DNA of 64,000 bases from Candidatus Eiseniibacteriota bacterium (lineage in GTDB: Bacteria > Eisenbacteria > RBG-16-71-46 > JABDJR01), in NCBI GenBank assembly GCA_963762255.1, contig CAVXKA010000002.1:1088001-1152000 (forward strand). The letters are read 5' to 3'. The notes below the pieces were generated by a model. It searched no databases and had not been told where the DNA came from. It was given only the letters and a program-made list of their open reading frames with translations. Positions 34,886 through 43,764 of the stretch are shown here, one piece after another. Position 1 is the stretch's first letter, and each line of letters starts with the position of its first letter. A program made the translations under genes and the position numbers.

Positions 34886-36205
34886 ATGACGATGGGAAGA
34901 CGGGTTCCTGGGGAATTGCTCGCGGTGCTCGTATTGTTGGGTCTCGGCACCGCCATGATTACGCCTCGGGGAGCGGAGGCAATACGTCTCCAAGGCACGA
35001 GCAGCACAGCCTTCTACTCCCAAGAGGTCAGCAAGAGCGGAGTCGGCGATGATTTCGAGAACCGGACGAGGGCCTTTGAAAGGCTCCGGTTCGACGTTCT
35101 CGAACTCGGAACCCAGAGCCTCTCTTTCCACGGTTCACTGACCGCGCGCAACGATCTGTCTCACCAGAGCCTCGGCGAGACGCGGACGCGGCTGTACCAC
35201 GGGTACCTCGAGTACCGCCCCCATCCGACGGGAACCAGGAAGCTCGCCTTCCAGTCCCGCCTCGGTCGGCAGTGGGTGACAGCAGGCGTCGGCACGGGAA
35301 CCCTGGACGGCCTCCTCGTGCAGTTCGATCGCCCCGAGTGGGGCGGCGTGACCGTCTACGGCGGAACGCTTGGGATCGACTCCCGCGAGCAGTTGCGGTT
35401 CGACTCGCCGGATGACTCCCGGCGAATCGGCGCGGAGCTGCGCATCCGCCCACGAGTGAGCGAGACGGTCTCCCCCGAGATCAAGGCAAGCTTTGCCGAC
35501 ACGCGCCGGAACGACATGGAAGAATCGCGGCGTCTCGGGCTGCGGGGCGCGCTCCGATTCCGCCGCCAGCTCCAGCTCTGGACGGAACTTCGCCACGACT
35601 TCGTTCTGGATCGGACCTACGGCACCGCTGCAGGATTCGAGTACTTCAGGGCGGCCAGGTACCTGCGCGTCTGGGGCGAGTACAACCGAAGGACCGCAGC
35701 CCTCCCGGCAACGTCCTTCTTCGCCTTCTGGGACTCGAAGCCGGTCACCCAGATGCGCGGCGGTGTCGGGTTCGGGATCGCCGGACCCTATCGCGCGAAC
35801 CTCGAGGTCAACCGGACCGAACTCAAGAGCGAGACGGCCGACGAAGGCTCCTCGACCGAGCACGCCAACGTCTACCGTGTCGTGCTGCAGCGGAACGCCA
35901 TCCAACTGGGAGCGCGATTCGAATCCGGCTTCGCCGGCGACCGGGTCGGCCTCGTGGCCTCTGCGACCCACCGCATCGGCGAGCGGTGGGATCTCCTCGC
36001 CGACCTCGGGTGGCAGACCTATGACTGGGGAGAGACCGATCTCACCGAGAACCACGTCGCGTCAGGGATCTTCGCCGCCACCTTCAAGGCGACCCCGACT
36101 ACCCACATCACCGGGCAGCTCGAAACGCTGAACAACTGGGATCTGAAGCAGGATGTCCGCTTCCTGCTTCGAATCGACAAGCGTTTCCGCCTGGGACGTT
36201 CTTGA
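34886..36205 (+). CDS. Predicted outer-membrane beta-barrel (porin of a porin-cytochrome conduit)
   Basis: Signal peptide, amphipathic beta-strand pattern, RLGRQ motif and terminal RF; lies directly upstream of multiheme cytochromes. Confidence 0.7.
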   Translation: MTMGRRVPGELLAVLVLLGLGTAMITPRGAEAIRLQGTSSTAFYSQEVSKSGVGDDFENRTRAFERLRFDVLELGTQSLSFHGSLTARNDLSHQSLGETRTRLYHGYLEYRPHPTGTRKLAFQSRLGRQWVTAGVGTGTLDGLLVQFDRPEWGGVTVYGGTLGIDSREQLRFDSPDDSRRIGAELRIRPRVSETVSPEIKASFADTRRNDMEESRRLGLRGALRFRRQLQLWTELRHDFVLDRTYGTAAGFEYFRAARYLRVWGEYNRRTAALPATSFFAFWDSKPVTQMRGGVGFGIAGPYRANLEVNRTELKSETADEGSSTEHANVYRVVLQRNAIQLGARFESGFAGDRVGLVASATHRIGERWDLLADLGWQTYDWGETDLTENHVASGIFAATFKATPTTHITGQLETLNNWDLKQDVRFLLRIDKRFRLGRS

Positions 36206-37362: not shown

Positions 37363-38745
37363 ATGTCGATACTAGGAAACTGCCGCGAACGTCACTCGGC
37401 GACGCCGACGACCCTCGTTCTCTTCCTGCTCGTCGCCGCCGCCCTCGCCATCTTCGCCGGCTGCGCCGTCGACAACGACGGCGGCACCCGACCCATTACC
37501 GGCCTGGCTGCGGACTGCAAGGGATGCCACACCGACAAGGACATGCTCGTAGCAACAGCCGCCCCCGATACGTCGACGGGGTCCGAGTCATCGGGAGAGG
37601 GGTGAGGCGGGGAAGTACCTCCGTTGGAGGTATGGGAAAAGTACCAGGTCTCGAGTGCGTTCTTCGCCGACGCTCACGGCGCCTTCTCCTGCACGAGCTG
37701 CCACGGGGGTCAAACCGGCATCAATACCAAGGAAGCAGCGCATGTCGGAATGGTCATCGATCCTTCGGCGGGTGACTCCCCTGCATGCCGGTCCTGTCAC
37801 CTGGGCATCGTGACCAATCACGCCGCCAGTCTCCATGGAACGCAGAACGGCTACATGACCCAGTTCGCGATCCGGACGGGACAGGCGCAGCCGTCGGCAC
37901 AGGTCGAGGCGATGTTCACCGCGCGCTGCTCCGGCTGCCATACGTCATGCGGCCAGTGCCATATCAGCCGACCCACCTCGGTGGAGGGAGGCCTGGTAAA
38001 CGGGCACGTGATCGCACGCAGGCCTTCCCAGACCGACAACTGCACGGCCTGTCACGGAAGCCGCGTCGGGGATGAGTTCCGAGGCCACAATGAAGGCATC
38101 GCCCCCGACGTCCACTACCTCAGGGGGAAGACCTGCTTCGCCTGCCACACCGGAACGGAGCTGCACGGCGACGGGACCACACCGGCGGGCCGCTACGACG
38201 CTCCCGGCGCCCCGGAGTGCACCGACTGTCACCCCGAGGTGTTGACCGACACCGAAAACACGCAACACGACATCCACACGGGGACCGTCGCCTGCCAGGT
38301 CTGTCATTCCGTGGAGTACAAGAATTGCTATAGCTGCCACGTAAAGCTGGATTCGCAGGGGATCCGATTCCCGTCGCGGATGGATTTCCGCATCGGCCGC
38401 AATCCCAACCCGACCGCGGACCGTCCGTGGAGCTACGTTGTGGTGCGGCACATCCCCATCGCTCCCGACAGCTTCGAGCCCTGGGGAGTGAGCCTGCCCC
38501 AGTATGCGGCCACGCCCACGTGGCGGTACGCGACGCCGCACAACATTCAGAAGCGTACGCCCCAGAACGCCACCTGCGATGCCTGCCACGGGGTCCGGGA
38601 CCTGTACCTGACTCCGGAGTACGCCGACACACTGATCGAGGCAGGTCTCATGTTCCAGGAGGAGATCCAGGCGAACGACGGCATCTTCGTTCGCCAGTTG
38701 CCAGAGAACACGGCCCTGTTTATGGGCCGCCGGGAAGGAGAATAG
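37363..38745 (+). CDS. Multiheme cytochrome c lipoprotein (11 CxxCH) with an in-frame TGA, probably selenocysteine
   Basis: ORFs 37363-37605 and 37624-38745 share a frame and are separated only by TGA 37603-37605 (..SGEG-U-GGEVPPLEVWEK). Lipobox FAGC; SECIS-like hairpin follows the TGA. Confidence 0.8.
37616..37632 (+). promoter_or_regulatory. Putative bacterial SECIS element
   Basis: TACCTCC-GTT-GGAGGTA: perfect 7-bp stem with a GU-containing apical loop 17 nt after the UGA. Confidence 0.65.
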
Positions 38746-38749
38746 TGAG

Positions 38750-39769
38750 ATGAAGAAGGTTGTACAGCTGGCCCTGATGGGGCTGGCACTCGCTGGATTG
38801 CTGACCGCCTGCGGAGGCGACGACTCGGATCCGACCCCGGTCGATCAATTCGAGATCGTGCGCACCTCGCTTGACACGTACCTGTCCTCGGCGGGGATGG
38901 CCCCGACCACGACCGCCCAGGTGCTGTTCGACAACCTGAACGACGGCAACACGGCCAATGACCCGTACGTGCTCAGCGTGCGCACCACGGACGACTATGC
39001 CAAGGGGCATGTCGCCGGTGCCCACAACATCAACTGGCGTCTGATCGGCAACGCCACGAATCTGGCAACGCTGCCCACGGACAAGCAGATCGTGGTCTAT
39101 TGCTACACGGGTCACACCGGCGCCGTAGCCACCACCTGCTTGAACGCCATGGGCTACAACGCGGTCAACATGAAGTTCGGAATGTGCGCCTGGACCCGGG
39201 ACGCCACCGTGCGGGCCACCACCGCTTTCCGGGAGGTCGAGGACTCTCACGACTACCCGACGGAGACCACGGCCAACGCGCTGACCCAGACCTATAACCT
39301 GCCGGAATTGAATGTGACCACCTCGCGGGACGAGGACGAGATCGTCCGGGCTGCGGCGGAGGACTACGCGGCGGACGCGACCGTCTCTCCGACGATCACC
39401 GCCCAGACCGTCTTCGACAACATCAACGACGGCAACACCGCCAACGACTACTTCATCCTGAGCGTCCGCTCGGCCGCCGACTACGCGAAGGGACACATCC
39501 CCGGCGCGTACAACATCCCCTACAAGGAGATCGCGAAGGTCGAGAACCTAAGGAAGCTCCCCACCGATAAGACGATCGTCGTCTATTGCTACACCGGTCA
39601 TACCGGCGGCACTGCGACGACCGCCCTGCGGATGCTCGGCTATCAGGCCGTCAACATGAAGTTCGGGATGACGGCGTGGACGCGGGATGCGACGGTGCGG
39701 GCCACCACCGCCTTCCGGGAAGTCGAGGACTCCCACGACTACCCGTTCACCACCGGGGTTAACCCCTAG
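38750..39769 (+). CDS. Tandem double-rhodanese (sulfurtransferase) lipoprotein
   Basis: Lipobox LTAC; two near-identical domains, each with GH(V/I)xGA and VVYCYTGHTG (active-site Cys). Confidence 0.9.
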   Translation: MKKVVQLALMGLALAGLLTACGGDDSDPTPVDQFEIVRTSLDTYLSSAGMAPTTTAQVLFDNLNDGNTANDPYVLSVRTTDDYAKGHVAGAHNINWRLIGNATNLATLPTDKQIVVYCYTGHTGAVATTCLNAMGYNAVNMKFGMCAWTRDATVRATTAFREVEDSHDYPTETTANALTQTYNLPELNVTTSRDEDEIVRAAAEDYAADATVSPTITAQTVFDNINDGNTANDYFILSVRSAADYAKGHIPGAYNIPYKEIAKVENLRKLPTDKTIVVYCYTGHTGGTATTALRMLGYQAVNMKFGMTAWTRDATVRATTAFREVEDSHDYPFTTGVNP

Positions 39770-39785: not shown

Positions 39786-39853
39786 GCGGCCGGCGTTTCC
39801 CCGAGGGGCCTGATCAGCATCCCCCGCGGAGGCGCCGGCCGCTTCCTTTTCTT
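39786..39853 (+). terminator. Rho-independent terminator
   Basis: GCGGCCGGCG...CGCCGGCCGC stem followed by TTCCTTTTCTT. Confidence 0.65.
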
Positions 39854-40574: not shown

Positions 40575-43500
40575 CTACTTGAGCAGCACGACCCTCTGCG
40601 ACTGCGAAGCCGTTCCAGCGCGCAAGTGCACGAAGTACACGCCCGGCGGGAGATCGCCGGCGTCGAAGCGCAGGGTGTGGAGACCCGCGGCCTCACGGCC
40701 TTCCGCCAGTGTTCGCACCTGGCGGCCGCGCACGTCTAGAACGCGCAGGGTGACCGGGGCCTCGGCCGACAACTCGTAGGAGAGCAGCGCGGAAGAGCCG
40801 AACGGGTTGGGCGCAGCGGGCAAGAGCCGAAGTACCGGTCGGGCCTCGTCCCGCCCGGGCACCGCGGTGGTCGAAAGAGGGAACGCATACCACTCGGCCG
40901 CGTCGAGGTTGCCGTCGCCGTTACCGGCCGGTGCTTGCGCGGTCAGCGCTCCGCCGTCCGCGGTGCCGTAGCGGGCCACGGCCACGTAGACGGTGGCCGG
41001 TATGCTTCCCAACTCGCCGGCGAGGTCGAGCGTGCCTTCGAGAATGCTCCCCGCCGACACCGCCGTCGCCCCCTGTTGGTCGAACCAGCCGCACCAGTTG
41101 TTGCCGCTCTCGTTGCCGATGAAGGCCGCCCAGTTCGCGACCTGACCCGACTTCGCCCACGGCGCGCCACGCAGCGCGAGCTGCGAGCCCGCGACGAGGA
41201 TGAACACGTCGTTGCCCACTCCGCTTGCGGCCTGCGACGCCATGTAGAGCTGGCTGCCGTTCCAATCCAGGTAGAGATTCACGCCCGCGTTGCTCGAAAC
41301 AAGTTCCGCCGACGCGTCGAGCTGCCCGTCCATGGTGTACGTGGTGGGGGGCGTTCCTCCGGAGACGGTCACGTGCCAATCCGACCCGCTGTTGTTGTCC
41401 CAGGTGCCGTCGTCGTAGTGAAGGACAAAGTCGAGCACGGTCACTGCCTGCGCGGGATCGTTGAACGGTCCCAGCGTGATGGTGAGGTCGCTCCCCGAAA
41501 CCGTCATCGGTGTCTCGACCGCCGGACCGGTGCCGTTGTACAGCGTCGTGCCGGCGGGCCGGTACGCCGCGATCGGCAAACCGAACGAGTTCACGCCCCA
41601 GTGGAGCTTGCAGGGCGCCGTGGTCCCTGCCACCGTGATCGTGATCGTGTTGTCTTCGGTCGGCGCGGTGGGGACCCAAGACACGCCGCCTCCGCCCGTG
41701 CTTCCGCCCTCGCCCACCCACACATGCTGGATCGGCGAGCGGCTCACGTTGCCGTGGATGTCCGTCGCCTCCACGTAGTAGTCGAGCAGCGTGTCGGTGA
41801 GCCCGGTGATCTGCGCGGCGTAGCGCTGGGCGCGGTAGAGCGGCATCGGGTTCGTCCGTGAGGCGATGTCGCTCGCGGTGCACGCGACCGAACTCCAGGC
41901 ACCCACTCCAGACCCGCCGGCATACGTGTCATTCGCCGCCGACGACACCGGCAGCACCCCGTCCGCGTCCGCGCGGTATTTGAGCGCGACCGATCCCAGC
42001 CCGCTCACGTCGTAGACGTAGGTCCACACCTCGAAGTCGCTCGGTTGGGCGATCCCCCACTCGGTGCCGCCCGGGTTGTAGGGCTCGCGCTGGGGGATGA
42101 AGATCGAAGGCCCGGTCAGGTCGGTCTGCCCGGCAATGACCGGCTGCGCGTACTGCACCGCCTGGTTGGCGGCGCGGGTCGGGTGCGAGTCCCAGATCCC
42201 GTCCTGCGCGCCGTCCCAGTACCAGTAATCGCTCGCCTCCGCGTTGAGCATGTATTTCCACGCGTTCACCGTGCCCGCCGCCAGCGGGTTCACCTGCTCC
42301 GCGGTGAAGACGATGTTCTTGGCCGCGGTCACCACCGCCCAACTGTTTCGGTCCGGGCTGTAGCCGTCGGTGGCGGGGTCGCCCAGCCACTTCTTGAACT
42401 CGGGATCGCCGTTGTCGGCGCCGCTCCAGCTCCCGTTCTCGACGTGGATCACGTCGCTCGACGCGGGCGGGAACATCTCGAGATAGTCCTCCACCGTCGT
42501 GCACACGAAGCGCGACGGGTTCGCGGAGAGCCAGTCCACGAACGCCTGGAAGTTGCTCCCGTAGTAGCTGTCCGTGCCGCCGCCGTAGTTGTCGCCGTCG
42601 TGGTGGAGCACGATCAGGAGCGGATGCGTCGGGTCGGTGTTGTAGGACTCGAGCTGGCTCATCACGGTGTCGTAGAGGAGCGCGCCGAATCCCCCGCGGC
42701 CATCCTCGTTGCCCATATAGCGGTCGGCGGGGACCGCGACGATGCTCGACACCGCCCCCGTTGCCGGGTCGCGGTACTCGACGATGTGCGGTTTGTGTCC
42801 CCACGCGCCCGAGATCTTGGTCGGAGCCCAGAGGTTGGTGAGCTGCACCCAGTCGTTGGGGTTCGGGTTGCGGATGTCCGCGCCGTTGGGCTCGTAGAGA
42901 TTGCCGGCCGTGCTGAACGGATAGCCGGCGGCGGCGCGGTCGAAGTGAGCGTTGTCGATCAACACCCACTCGATACCCTCGGCGGCCAGAGCCGGGATCA
43001 TGCGCGGTGTGAAAGCGTTCTCGGGAGGAAACATGCCGCGCGAGTAGGCACCGGGGAAGTTCGCGGCCATGGTCGTCTTGTGCGATTGGATCTGCTTGCG
43101 CAGGTCGATGGTGTCGATGAGCCCCATGAGCGGGTGGTGGTAGCCGAAACCGACCAGATCCATGCGCGGGTTGCCGAGCGCTGTGCTCTGCGACTTGGCG
43201 TAGTTCCAATTCCCCTTCCACCCGATGAAATTACCGTTGCCCGCCGCCTCCAGGTTGTTGAGGTTCTCGATCAACGACCCCGTCAGGCTCACCTGCGCGC
43301 CGAAGTGTCCCATCCCCGCGTTGATCCCCTTCTGCACGGCGTCTTTGGGCCAGCTCGTATAGGGACCGGTCCGCTGATTGTGGATGTCCACCACCGAGTA
43401 GCTATAGCGCGCATTGGCGTCGGTCACGAGCAGCGACTCGTAAGGCCAGTAGATCGGCTGGTGCATGTGCCAGAGGAAGGCGATATAGATGGGGGGGGTG

Positions 43501-43610
43501 GTTGCGGGCACCTGCACCGGCGGGGCGGGGGCGGGCGCGGCGTCAGCCGGCAGGGTCCGGGCCGGGGAGATCAGAAGGGCGGCGAGAAGCAATAGCCAAG
43601 TGTAGCGCAT
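40575..43610 (-). CDS. Secreted GH57-like glycoside hydrolase with carbohydrate-binding modules and a FlgD-Ig/T9SS-like C-terminal domain
   Basis: WHMHQP, FPPE and HDGDN; LHWG..WDNNSGSDW (CBM-like); C-terminal PNPF..LDVRGRQV..GVYFVHL. Confidence 0.8.
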   Translation of the reverse strand: MRYTWLLLLAALLISPARTLPADAAPAPAPPVQVPATTPPIYIAFLWHMHQPIYWPYESLLVTDANARYSYSVVDIHNQRTGPYTSWPKDAVQKGINAGMGHFGAQVSLTGSLIENLNNLEAAGNGNFIGWKGNWNYAKSQSTALGNPRMDLVGFGYHHPLMGLIDTIDLRKQIQSHKTTMAANFPGAYSRGMFPPENAFTPRMIPALAAEGIEWVLIDNAHFDRAAAGYPFSTAGNLYEPNGADIRNPNPNDWVQLTNLWAPTKISGAWGHKPHIVEYRDPATGAVSSIVAVPADRYMGNEDGRGGFGALLYDTVMSQLESYNTDPTHPLLIVLHHDGDNYGGGTDSYYGSNFQAFVDWLSANPSRFVCTTVEDYLEMFPPASSDVIHVENGSWSGADNGDPEFKKWLGDPATDGYSPDRNSWAVVTAAKNIVFTAEQVNPLAAGTVNAWKYMLNAEASDYWYWDGAQDGIWDSHPTRAANQAVQYAQPVIAGQTDLTGPSIFIPQREPYNPGGTEWGIAQPSDFEVWTYVYDVSGLGSVALKYRADADGVLPVSSAANDTYAGGSGVGAWSSVACTASDIASRTNPMPLYRAQRYAAQITGLTDTLLDYYVEATDIHGNVSRSPIQHVWVGEGGSTGGGGVSWVPTAPTEDNTITITVAGTTAPCKLHWGVNSFGLPIAAYRPAGTTLYNGTGPAVETPMTVSGSDLTITLGPFNDPAQAVTVLDFVLHYDDGTWDNNSGSDWHVTVSGGTPPTTYTMDGQLDASAELVSSNAGVNLYLDWNGSQLYMASQAASGVGNDVFILVAGSQLALRGAPWAKSGQVANWAAFIGNESGNNWCGWFDQQGATAVSAGSILEGTLDLAGELGSIPATVYVAVARYGTADGGALTAQAPAGNGDGNLDAAEWYAFPLSTTAVPGRDEARPVLRLLPAAPNPFGSSALLSYELSAEAPVTLRVLDVRGRQVRTLAEGREAAGLHTLRFDAGDLPPGVYFVHLRAGTASQSQRVVLLK

Positions 43611-43764
43611 CACAAACCCCCGTTGGACCGGTCCAAGCCACGTAGACATGGGCCCGAAACGTGGTTCATTATACCCTACGCAGGCTCGGAAGTGTCTCGC
43701 CGGATGATGGCTCCCGGGGCCTTACAGCTAGGATGGAGACACCCCCCCTGCGGAGGTTACCGCG

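Follow-up and report, generated by a model that had tools for sequence, protein, structure and literature searches.

An eleven-heme lipoprotein cytochrome c gene with a probable selenocysteine codon, and its rhodanese partner, in a Candidatus Eiseniibacteriota genome

Introduction

This report concerns a gene on a stretch of 64,000 nucleotides (nt) of DNA, hereafter the window, from the genome of a Candidatus Eiseniibacteriota bacterium (GenBank assembly GCA_963762255.1, contig CAVXKA010000002.1, positions 1,088,001 to 1,152,000 of the forward strand). At positions 37363–38745 of the window, two open reading frames (ORFs) separated by an in-frame UGA codon very probably form one gene, in which the UGA is genuinely decoded as selenocysteine (Sec) and whose product is predicted to be a single cytochrome c. 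The original prediction, made from the letters of the window and a list of its ORFs, had proposed one selenoprotein of about 460 residues, and this proposal has held up on a TGA column conserved among homologs, the Sec machinery of the genome, a covarying hairpin 3′ of the UGA and homologs with cysteine at the same position. The gene has a conserved neighbor that codes for a lipoprotein with two rhodanese domains, and the two genes travel together through at least ten phyla. We describe the evidence for Sec decoding, the conserved features of the predicted cytochrome and of its partner, a mechanism that the pair may follow, the alternative readings, and the position of the family among known multiheme cytochromes.

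A Single Reading Frame Across an In-Frame UGA

The upstream ORF (37363–37605) starts with ATG at 37363 and, after 80 codons, ends with TGA at 37603–37605. Its product displays, in this order, a basic n-region, a hydrophobic stretch, a lipobox-like FAGC (Cys34) and the heme 1 motif C52-K-G-C-H56. Beyond the TGA, the frame remains open until TAG 38743–38745, and translation through the UGA gives a product of 460 residues with 11 CxxCH motifs. The two observations from which the prediction had started, an 80-residue ORF with a lipobox and one CxxCH that ends at this TGA, and the continuation of the same frame into a ten-heme segment without a signal peptide, are both borne out by the translation. 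The first start codon of genetic code table 11 on the 3′ side of the TGA is TTG 37624, and the product that would begin there has 373 residues, opens with MEVWEKYQVSS and, judged by eye from its sequence, has no hydrophobic leader. Attachment of c-type hemes takes place outside the cytoplasmic membrane, and a ten-heme protein that lacks a leader would therefore not be viable. A hydrophobic leader followed by a Cys and a CxxCH is found in the upstream segment of all 11 related loci described below, in each of which that segment amounts to a signal peptide with a lipobox Cys plus heme 1, and it recurs in most of the further family loci inspected.

Conservation of the TGA Column

Of 41 related genomes, 11, the source genome included, hold a strong match (E <= 2.3e-81, 45–100% identity). 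Each of these 11 matches contains exactly one TGA, always in the same column and within the motif G-[ED]-G-U-G-G-x-V-x-P-L-E-x-W, and the five weaker matches among the 41 genomes are other cytochromes without stops. A scan of a collection holding one genome per species gave at least 599 pattern matches, at least 596 of which encode relatives; the locus counts given throughout this text refer to the best 80 of these at least 596 relatives. At the Sec column, these 80 loci have TGA in 76 cases, Cys in two (one TGT, one TGC), Gly in one and Arg in one. Among nine full-length database proteins, four have Cys and the others W, P, P, G and a deletion, and among 35 distant representatives that span the column (clustered at 50% identity) Cys is the commonest state (14/35), the rest being varied. 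TAA and TAG are not among the states found in homologs at this column. A retained TGA or a Cys is what the prediction had looked for in homologs, and both are present.

A quick maximum-likelihood tree requires at least three changes for the Cys forms, each of which is nested among Sec forms, and it gathers the three forms with neither Sec nor Cys into one clade; the tree is unrooted and gives no direction for the change between Sec and Cys. Contigs from three other public sequencing runs (two studies, with strains 95–99% alike) span positions 37603–37605, and none of the 40 differences listed falls on these positions, 16 further differences being outside the list; no public run compared contained half of the stretch. 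The suspicion, voiced with the prediction, that the TGA could be a base-call error is ruled out by the retention of the codon across genomes and by the agreement, among the listed differences, of the contigs from other runs.

Some individual sequences depart from the common pattern. Three full-length database homologs (P0108, P0124 and P0136) have Trp at the Sec column, for example in G-E-G-W-G-S, which could reflect either a real TGG or a TGA to which a gene caller, having picked genetic code 4 or 25, assigned Trp. One locus labeled Gemmatimonadota (L050) has an extra stop two codons 5′ of its TGA, which may come from an assembly error or mark a pseudogene. The two Cys-form loci (L063 and L077) code for near-identical proteins, with branch lengths of 0.027 and 0.021, although their metagenome-assembled genomes (MAGs) are labeled Actinomycetota and Calditrichota, a pattern that suggests an inconsistency in binning or labeling. 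selA was detected in the L077 genome; it was not found in the L063 genome, whose completeness is not established, and the L063 locus still has a perfect hairpin.

A Covarying Hairpin 3′ of the UGA

Downstream of the UGA, the arms G-UACCUCC (37615–37622) and GGAGGUA-U (37626–37633) enclose a GUU loop (37623–37625), at a distance of 17 nt from UGA to loop and inside the codons for V-P-P-L-E-V-W. The hairpin TACCTCC-GTT-GGAGGTA with a GU loop 17 nt after the UGA, from which the prediction had argued, was found as described. The model of bacterial selenocysteine insertion sequence (SECIS) elements, or bSECIS, calls for a small apical loop situated 16–37 nt from the UGA, with G and then G or U at the first loop positions (PMC13188914). 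With a spacing of 17 nt and a GUU loop, the window hairpin agrees with this model.

The SECIS-like nature of the hairpin, also part of the prediction, is corroborated by this geometry and by the comparison of sequences. In an alignment of the 11 related sequences, 81.8% of the helix cells are paired, compared with 40–53% in slid registers. In a larger alignment of 75 sequences, made of the window and 74 of the 76 TGA loci (L050 was excluded for its extra stop and L064 for its divergent context), the paired share of the helix cells is 85.1%, slid registers giving 42–53%. Five of the eight helix pairs vary on both sides, and cells of this kind number 29, compared with 7.0 +/- 2.1 in shuffles. 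Over the 75 sequences, none of five measures was reached by shuffles (0/500), a result that is inflated by kinship among the aligned sequences. The pair at columns 21–35 occurs as GC in 36 sequences, AU in 14, CG in eight and GU in six, and it couples the synonymous third base of one codon with the second base of the codon five positions on, where that base chooses between Val, Ala and Gly (the x of L-E-x-W). As far as the alignment goes, protein selection alone does not account for this coupling. Seven TGA forms that are off-register for the helix have alternative hairpins of −8 to −12.5 kcal/mol. Among the non-Sec loci, folding is weak in L077, L045 and L079 (−5.1, −6.0 and −4.6 kcal/mol, compared with a mean of −11.5 for Sec forms), loci of this kind being too few (n = 4) for a conclusion on hairpin loss. 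A scan of positions 37500–37760 with Rfam found no matching model, its single match being at chance level (E 2.6).

Selenocysteine Machinery and Genetic Code

The assembly comprises three contigs, totals 4.14 Mb and is 93.6% complete. Models for selA, selB, selD and tRNA-Sec score 541, 366, 386 and 67.5 bits in this genome, all above their curated cut-offs, and ARAGORN reports a tRNA-SeC with anticodon TCA; all four components, for which the prediction had asked one to look, are thus present. Each of the 11 related TGA-form genomes, and each of the five genomes sampled from distant phyla, likewise has a selA match above the cut-off. Of the 47 open frames of at least 400 codons in the window, 27 terminate with TGA, which is also the final stop of 18 among the 76 family genes of the TGA form. 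TGA being an ordinary stop both in the window and in the family genes, a reassigned code is excluded. The selD match itself, which lies outside the window (L010, G000:C2:839989-843921), holds one in-frame TGA, and the SelD of this host is probably a selenoprotein too.

The Sec Motif, the Hemes and Their Candidate Ligands

Conserved residues were assessed on an alignment of 64 protein sequences that took in 51 of 62 complete ORFs of 400–560 amino acids; those excluded had uncertain starts or, in a few cases, were near-duplicates. In this alignment, G78, G80, U/C81, G82, E89 and W91 are conserved at >= 90% and G83 is invariant, as are Cys34 and all 11 heme motifs, whereas the 15–20 residues between heme 1 and G78 are variable. 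The prediction had put the Sec residue in a flexible GEG-U-GG linker. The motif stands, but it is more than a flexible linker, being conserved, unlike the variable stretch that precedes it. G-E-G-U-G-G rather has the look of a functional site, set on a glycine-flanked loop that separates heme 1 from heme 2.

Ten free His residues (H105, H127, H158, H215, H251, H268, H302, H305, H363 and H393) are conserved at >= 90%. Because there are 11 heme motifs and ten such residues, one heme is left without a conserved His partner. Besides the lipobox and heme Cys, no Cys other than U/C81 is conserved in the alignment, from which we infer that U81 would be the sole other conserved candidate for a ligand or a nucleophile. 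It is conceivable, though improbable on present evidence, that U81 acts as the distal sixth ligand of the heme lacking a His, forming a His/selenolate heme, and swings off to take sulfane sulfur or selenium from the rhodanese.

A Conserved Rhodanese Partner

The gene that follows the Sec cytochrome gene codes for a lipoprotein with two rhodanese domains (Table 1), whose active-site loops read CYTGHTG in the window protein and contain Cys118 and Cys280. Both active-site Cys are invariant in 47 sequences, in which the loops read CYTG[HQ]T[GAS]. A rhodanese homolog occurs in 70 of the 80 loci, 27 times directly downstream of the Sec cytochrome gene, 36 times directly upstream, six times as an in-frame fusion and once elsewhere; it adjoins on the same strand in 63/80. 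It is absent from ten loci, several of which are on short contigs and one of which is the Arg form L079. The fusions (L069, L076, L081, L082, L104 and L108) include a single frame of about 1,500 codons on an Anaerolineae MAG contig (L082, 3016–7653, + strand). Here a signal peptide precedes a tandem of six rhodanese domains that are nearly identical; after these come the Sec cytochrome, with the motif G-E-G-U-V-G, a further two heme motifs and, at the C terminus, a membrane anchor.

Judging from this gene order, the Sec cytochrome and the rhodanese are likely to be functionally coupled. As far as the neighborhoods tell, the invariant core of the system is this pair, which is joined to differing electron-supply chains. 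The features of the window locus are collected in Table 1.

Table 1. Coordinates of the predicted selenoprotein gene, its elements and its neighbors in the window
Feature	Positions	Strand	Basis
Gene for a 439-aa protein, possibly an outer-membrane beta-barrel	34886..36205	+	no Pfam/NCBIfam match
Gene for a 13-CxxCH cytochrome, 364 aa, with N-terminal hydrophobic segment	36153..37247	+	Pfam Cytochrome_C7, c3_2, MtrC/MtrF II-IV
Complete candidate selenoprotein gene, 11-heme lipoprotein cytochrome c, 460 residues	37363..38745	+	read-through translation; stop TAG 38743-38745
N-terminal segment: lipoprotein signal peptide, heme 1, variable acidic/Ser-Thr stretch, G-E-G	37363..37602	+	
In-frame UGA, residue 81, very probably read as selenocysteine	37603..37605	+	column conserved in relatives; Cys in homologs
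Putative SECIS-type hairpin, 8-bp stem including an outer G-U pair, GUU apical loop	37615..37633	+	covariation, bSECIS geometry
Gene for a lipoprotein with two rhodanese domains, conserved partner	38750..39769	+	Pfam PF00581, two stretches, E 6.5e-33
Terminator-like hairpin with T-run, likely operon end	39828..39846	+	consensus scan; 59 nt after rhodanese stop

Other Neighbors and Genomic Context

The electron-supply side of the locus varies between lineages. A homolog of the 13-heme cytochrome encoded upstream in the window occurs in 12 of the 80 loci. The 439-residue protein encoded before it has homologs in two loci, a different barrel-like family being present in 14; the nearest named Atlas clusters of the window protein are outer-membrane beta-barrels at 0.91–0.92, similarities that are leads only. 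Elsewhere, a 4Fe-4S protein with a twin-arginine translocation (TAT) signal is encoded directly 3′ of the Sec cytochrome in 28/80 loci, and a membrane-anchored cytochrome with seven hemes is found in 25/80. In L055, for instance, the gene order is rhodanese, Sec cytochrome, 4Fe-4S protein and cytochrome b561-type protein.

CcmF and CcmE are recognized by Pfam in 13/80 loci each. In L055, L058, L059, L111 and other Dehalococcoidia loci, the Ccm genes adjoin the rhodanese and Sec cytochrome module on its upstream flank, which, judged by eye, also holds a CcmA-like ATPase and a membrane protein; in these bacteria, the Sec cytochrome may be one of the main proteins that the Ccm system serves. In the window, the terminator scan of the region returned six sites where 3.4 were expected, so that the terminator-like hairpin listed in Table 1 is weak evidence for an operon end. 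Just past the operon, on the opposite strand (40575–43649), lies an ORF of 1,024 residues whose product, by eye, resembles a secreted carbohydrate-active enzyme that ends in a domain of the sorting type.

Distribution and Database Annotation

By their labels, the best 80 loci come from Eisenbacteria, Phycisphaerae, Calditrichota, KSB1/Deferribacteres, Gemmatimonadota, Ignavibacteria, Actinomycetota/Acidimicrobiia, Dehalococcoidia, Anaerolineae, Chloroflexia and others, and 221 clusters at 50% identity score at E <= 1e-30. The prediction that gene callers would split the gene in two came true in the databases: the window product is deposited as a 373-residue protein, most of the 120 best homologs have 350–376 residues and cover 75–81% of the query, and 24 of the 32 representatives in which the Sec column is missing begin at query residues 85–91, that is, 4–10 residues beyond the column (MPPLEAWEK..., LEVWQK...). 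These proteins are deposited under names such as “hypothetical protein,” “thiosulfate/3-mercaptopyruvate sulfurtransferase” and “nitrate/TMAO reductase-like tetraheme cytochrome c subunit,” and no database name among the homologs examined marks a selenoprotein. Among the papers listed by our literature searches, we found no description of an eleven-heme Sec cytochrome, and recent selenoprotein catalogs or supplementary tables may contain the family; the ExtKL family is the one cytochrome entry of a 2022 selenoprotein review, and the word cytochrome is absent from the deep-Sep paper.

A Possible Mechanism

The module formed by the Sec cytochrome and the rhodanese, together with the mechanism outlined here, is quite likely the best overall explanation of the locus. 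Within it, the specific proposal that the cytochrome is a rhodanese-fed reductase for sulfane sulfur or selenium, made by analogy, may or may not prove right, and we give it about equal weight either way. The comparative evidence suggests that the hairpin, 17 nt past the UGA, would attract SelB during translation. The active-site Cys of the rhodanese would carry sulfane sulfur, as persulfide or polysulfide, or its selenium equivalent to the cytochrome, where the U81 selenolate, on its glycine-flanked loop, would attack the delivered sulfur. The resulting Se-S(Se) adduct would be reduced by electrons from the heme chain, with release of sulfide or of selenide/Se(0). Since no second Cys is conserved in the cytochrome, a resolving thiol may come from the rhodanese. 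The electrons would be supplied in the window by the 13-heme cytochrome and the putative outer-membrane barrel, and in Dehalococcoidia by the TAT-exported 4Fe-4S protein and a b-type cytochrome that would link up with the quinone pool. The role proposed for U81 parallels the working model for MccSep, a Sec cytochrome of Geobacter (PMC13510729).

Alternative Readings

Several observations tell against Sec decoding or against the function just outlined. Taken as a single sequence, the hairpin is unremarkable (z = −0.94, with 36 of 200 shuffles at least as stable), so that the case for a SECIS element stands on the comparison across sequences. The hairpin also overlaps the conserved peptide V-P-P-L-E-x-W and its conservation is thus partly that of the protein, and the Cys form L063 retains 8/8 of its pairs. 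Four of the 80 close loci are without Sec, and 21 of the 35 distant representatives have neither Sec nor Cys, the alignment being less certain at that distance. selA occurs in 39 of the 41 relatives, with or without the gene, which makes its co-occurrence non-discriminating. In 63 of the 75 aligned sequences, a possible restart codon, TTG or GTG, stands in the hairpin loop. One RNA run gave a 38-nt piece with 90–95% likeness, which says nothing on expression, and the small shares of the stretch in other public runs are uninformative on habitat. Finally, the function, and likewise the direction of electron flow and the substrate, are drawn entirely from gene neighborhood and analogy.

The restart codon belongs to the reading in which the TGA is a true stop and an 80-residue one-heme lipoprotein is followed by a 373-residue ten-heme protein reinitiated at TTG 37624, which is precisely the split that gene callers produce. 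We consider this pair of proteins very unlikely. Its second member would bear ten c-type heme motifs and no signal peptide; the restart codon is CTG, TTA or CTC in 12/75 sequences, and an in-frame ATG follows within 16 codons in only 8/75. Moreover, Cys replaces the stop in homologs, the frame, the flanking motif and the covarying hairpin are conserved, and in L082 the rhodanese domains, the upstream segment and the cytochrome are all in one frame. Read-through with an amino acid other than Sec, whether Trp, Cys, Gly or Arg were inserted by near-cognate tRNAs or the codon were reassigned as in codes 4 and 25, is to our mind just as hard to credit. W in P0108, P0136 and P0124, together with the one Gly and the one Arg locus, would accord with it, but UGA is the commonest stop in the window (27/47) and ends 18/76 family genes, the Sec system is complete, the hairpin covaries and follows the SECIS geometry, and among the residues that replace Sec, Cys is the most frequent. 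Even less credence is due to a sequencing or assembly error or a recent pseudogene, a reading for which one can point to the metagenome-type assembly (three contigs, 93.6% complete) and to the extra stop two codons before the TGA of L050: TGA recurs in 76/80 independently assembled loci from many phyla, once per gene in 11/11 relatives, the contigs of three other runs have no listed difference there, and the 11 heme motifs are intact. Sec decoding of a single protein is the reading retained here.

Two further readings accept the selenoprotein and assign it another role. On the one hand, it could be the outer lipoprotein of a porin-cytochrome conduit and pass electrons to minerals or electrodes outside the cell, since in the window its gene follows those of the barrel-like protein and the 13-heme cytochrome, and homologs with Pfam MtrC/MtrF II-IV matches exist. 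This role is improbable: a homolog of the barrel occurs in 2/80 loci and the other barrel-like family in 14/80, against 70/80 for the rhodanese, which is fused in six; many carriers are labeled Chloroflexota or Actinomycetota, with no barrel in their examined loci; and plain electron hopping does not evidently call for a conserved Sec. On the other hand, the enzyme could work oxidatively, in the manner of TsdA or SoxAX, on thiosulfate, a sulfide-derived persulfide or like compounds from the rhodanese, and send the electrons inward. According to its authors, the chemistry of MccSep may be akin to the TsdA/SoxAX reaction run backward (PMC13510729), and nothing in the sequence fixes the direction. 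Oxidation is slightly less doubtful than the conduit, yet still unlikely: sox and dsr genes are not seen among the conserved neighbors, and the pair of 4Fe-4S protein and cytochrome b resembles, in our reading, the electron-input modules of anaerobic reductases. A reductive role fed by the rhodanese is preferred among the functions considered.

Comparison with Known Cytochromes and Systems

The catalogued cytochrome-type selenoproteins comprise ExtKL (NF040886), the GSU2204 family (NF041027) and the octaheme tetrathionate reductase (OTR) family (TIGR04315) (PMC13188914). A scan of the read-through protein against NCBIfam at E <= 0.01 returned only ExtM and NrfB; the ExtM match (NF040943) extends over 64 residues and scores 26.7 bits, the cut-off of the model being 800. 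At the window locus, NF040886 had no match at E <= 1 (cut-off 250 bits; its best score in the genome, 20.5 bits, lies elsewhere) and TIGR04315 scored 9.3 bits against a cut-off of 375. The GSU2204 family had no match in the NCBIfam scan at E <= 0.01, the model not having been run separately. Another candidate, the family NF049953 (hypothetical protein DG, motif GUxG, 172 positions), was set aside, as it had no match at E <= 1 for a cut-off of 130 bits. A profile search of PDB sequences gave weak local similarity, led by 28pb_A (E 1.7e-5) and followed by NrfB and NrfA. 

The window protein is like OTR in being a multiheme cytochrome that would act on sulfur compounds, and some members of the OTR family are selenoproteins (PMC13188914). 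A true, full-length OTR gene is found elsewhere on the same contig (C2:612215-613459, within L123, G000:C2:610715-614959); it scores 549 bits and has no in-frame stop, and by this match the host has a second multiheme enzyme for sulfur compounds. A second Sec cytochrome was considered at G000:C3, around 880,100–883,300 (L122 and L127), where there are weak matches to multiheme hidden Markov models and one TGA, and was rejected because translation in six frames, with TGA taken as U, gave no credible cytochrome frame.

The closest functional parallel is with MccSep of Geobacter sulfurreducens (GSU2937-2936), a multiheme Sec cytochrome that reduces polysulfide and selenite and whose U325, on a D-G-U-P loop, adopts two conformations beside a His/Cys heme (PMC13510729). 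MccSep, also named ExtKL, shares with the window protein the annotation of a multiheme Sec cytochrome as two ORFs, the existence of Cys homologs, a SECIS-like hairpin, and a rhodanese-like protein and an outer-membrane barrel encoded nearby, and the Sec loop contains Gly in both MccSep (D-G-U-P) and the window protein (G-E-G-U-G-G) (PMC13510729, PMC5877670). The differences are substantial as well. MccSep has five hemes and forms a soluble periplasmic tetramer, whereas the window protein is an 11-heme predicted lipoprotein; Sec325 of MccSep is in a C-terminal immunoglobulin-like domain, while Sec81 of the window protein comes before heme 2; MccSep has a conserved heme-ligating Cys239, whereas the window family has no second conserved free Cys; and MccSep is found mainly in Desulfobacterota and Nitrospirota, the window family in Chloroflexota, Actinomycetota, Eisenbacteria, Calditrichota, Phycisphaerae and others. 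The MccSep authors draw parallels to TsdA, to SoxAX and to the Gly-Cys-Sec-Gly arm of thioredoxin reductase (PMC13510729); what these have in common with the window protein is a chalcogen nucleophile placed at a heme or on a Gly-flanked arm, and no sequence relation is expected. On sequence comparison, the window family is new and unrelated to MccSep, within the recently established multiheme cytochrome selenoenzymes.

The Geobacter cluster extHIJKLMNOPQS codes for a rhodanese (ExtH), a porin (ExtI), the Sec cytochrome ExtKL and large cytochromes (PMC5877670). The ext cluster, like other porin-cytochrome conduits, thus has the same types of parts side by side as the window, namely a barrel-like protein, multiheme cytochromes, a Sec cytochrome and a rhodanese. 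Orthology between the two sets of proteins is not seen: at E <= 0.01, 18 families matched the window rhodanese and none the barrel, and no Ext family was among them. As a porin-cytochrome conduit, the window locus fits in gene order, its barrel is without a family match, and the arrangement is not family-wide, the barrel and the 13-heme cytochrome being mostly replaced by other partners beyond Eisenbacteria. The likeness to the ext cluster looks like a parallel solution rather than membership.

Sud of Wolinella succinogenes is an exported carrier of the rhodanese type that passes polysulfide sulfur, bound to its Cys, to the membrane-bound reductase Psr, a molybdopterin enzyme. The window module differs from Sud-Psr in having a multiheme selenoprotein as its putative catalytic subunit, and in a carrier that contains several rhodanese domains in tandem, as many as six, and in some loci forms a single chain with that subunit. 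Rhodanese-like proteins also supply sulfur to sulfur-reducing enzymes in Aquifex (PMC6378623).

Significance

Multiheme cytochrome selenoenzymes were newly shown to be working enzymes with MccSep in 2026 (PMC13510729). The family described here would be a second, unrelated and apparently larger family of multiheme Sec cytochromes. Its Sec decoding is about as well supported as sequence analysis permits, and its function and mechanism are hypotheses. In nearly every database entry, the split at the UGA strips the protein of both its putative catalytic residue and its export signal; recognition of the read-through gene would correct many annotations and add an entry to the catalogs of selenoproteomes.

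Little is known of the electron acceptors used by the abundant uncultured lineages of sediment and groundwater, and for these organisms the module is a concrete candidate for the respiration of sulfur, polysulfide or selenium. Because the cytochrome is paired with a rhodanese almost obligatorily, and is occasionally fused to it, the hypothesis could be tested with two recombinant proteins. If U81 were indeed a heme ligand, the family would represent a new and widespread class of respiratory chalcogen reductases, independent of both molybdopterin and MccSep.

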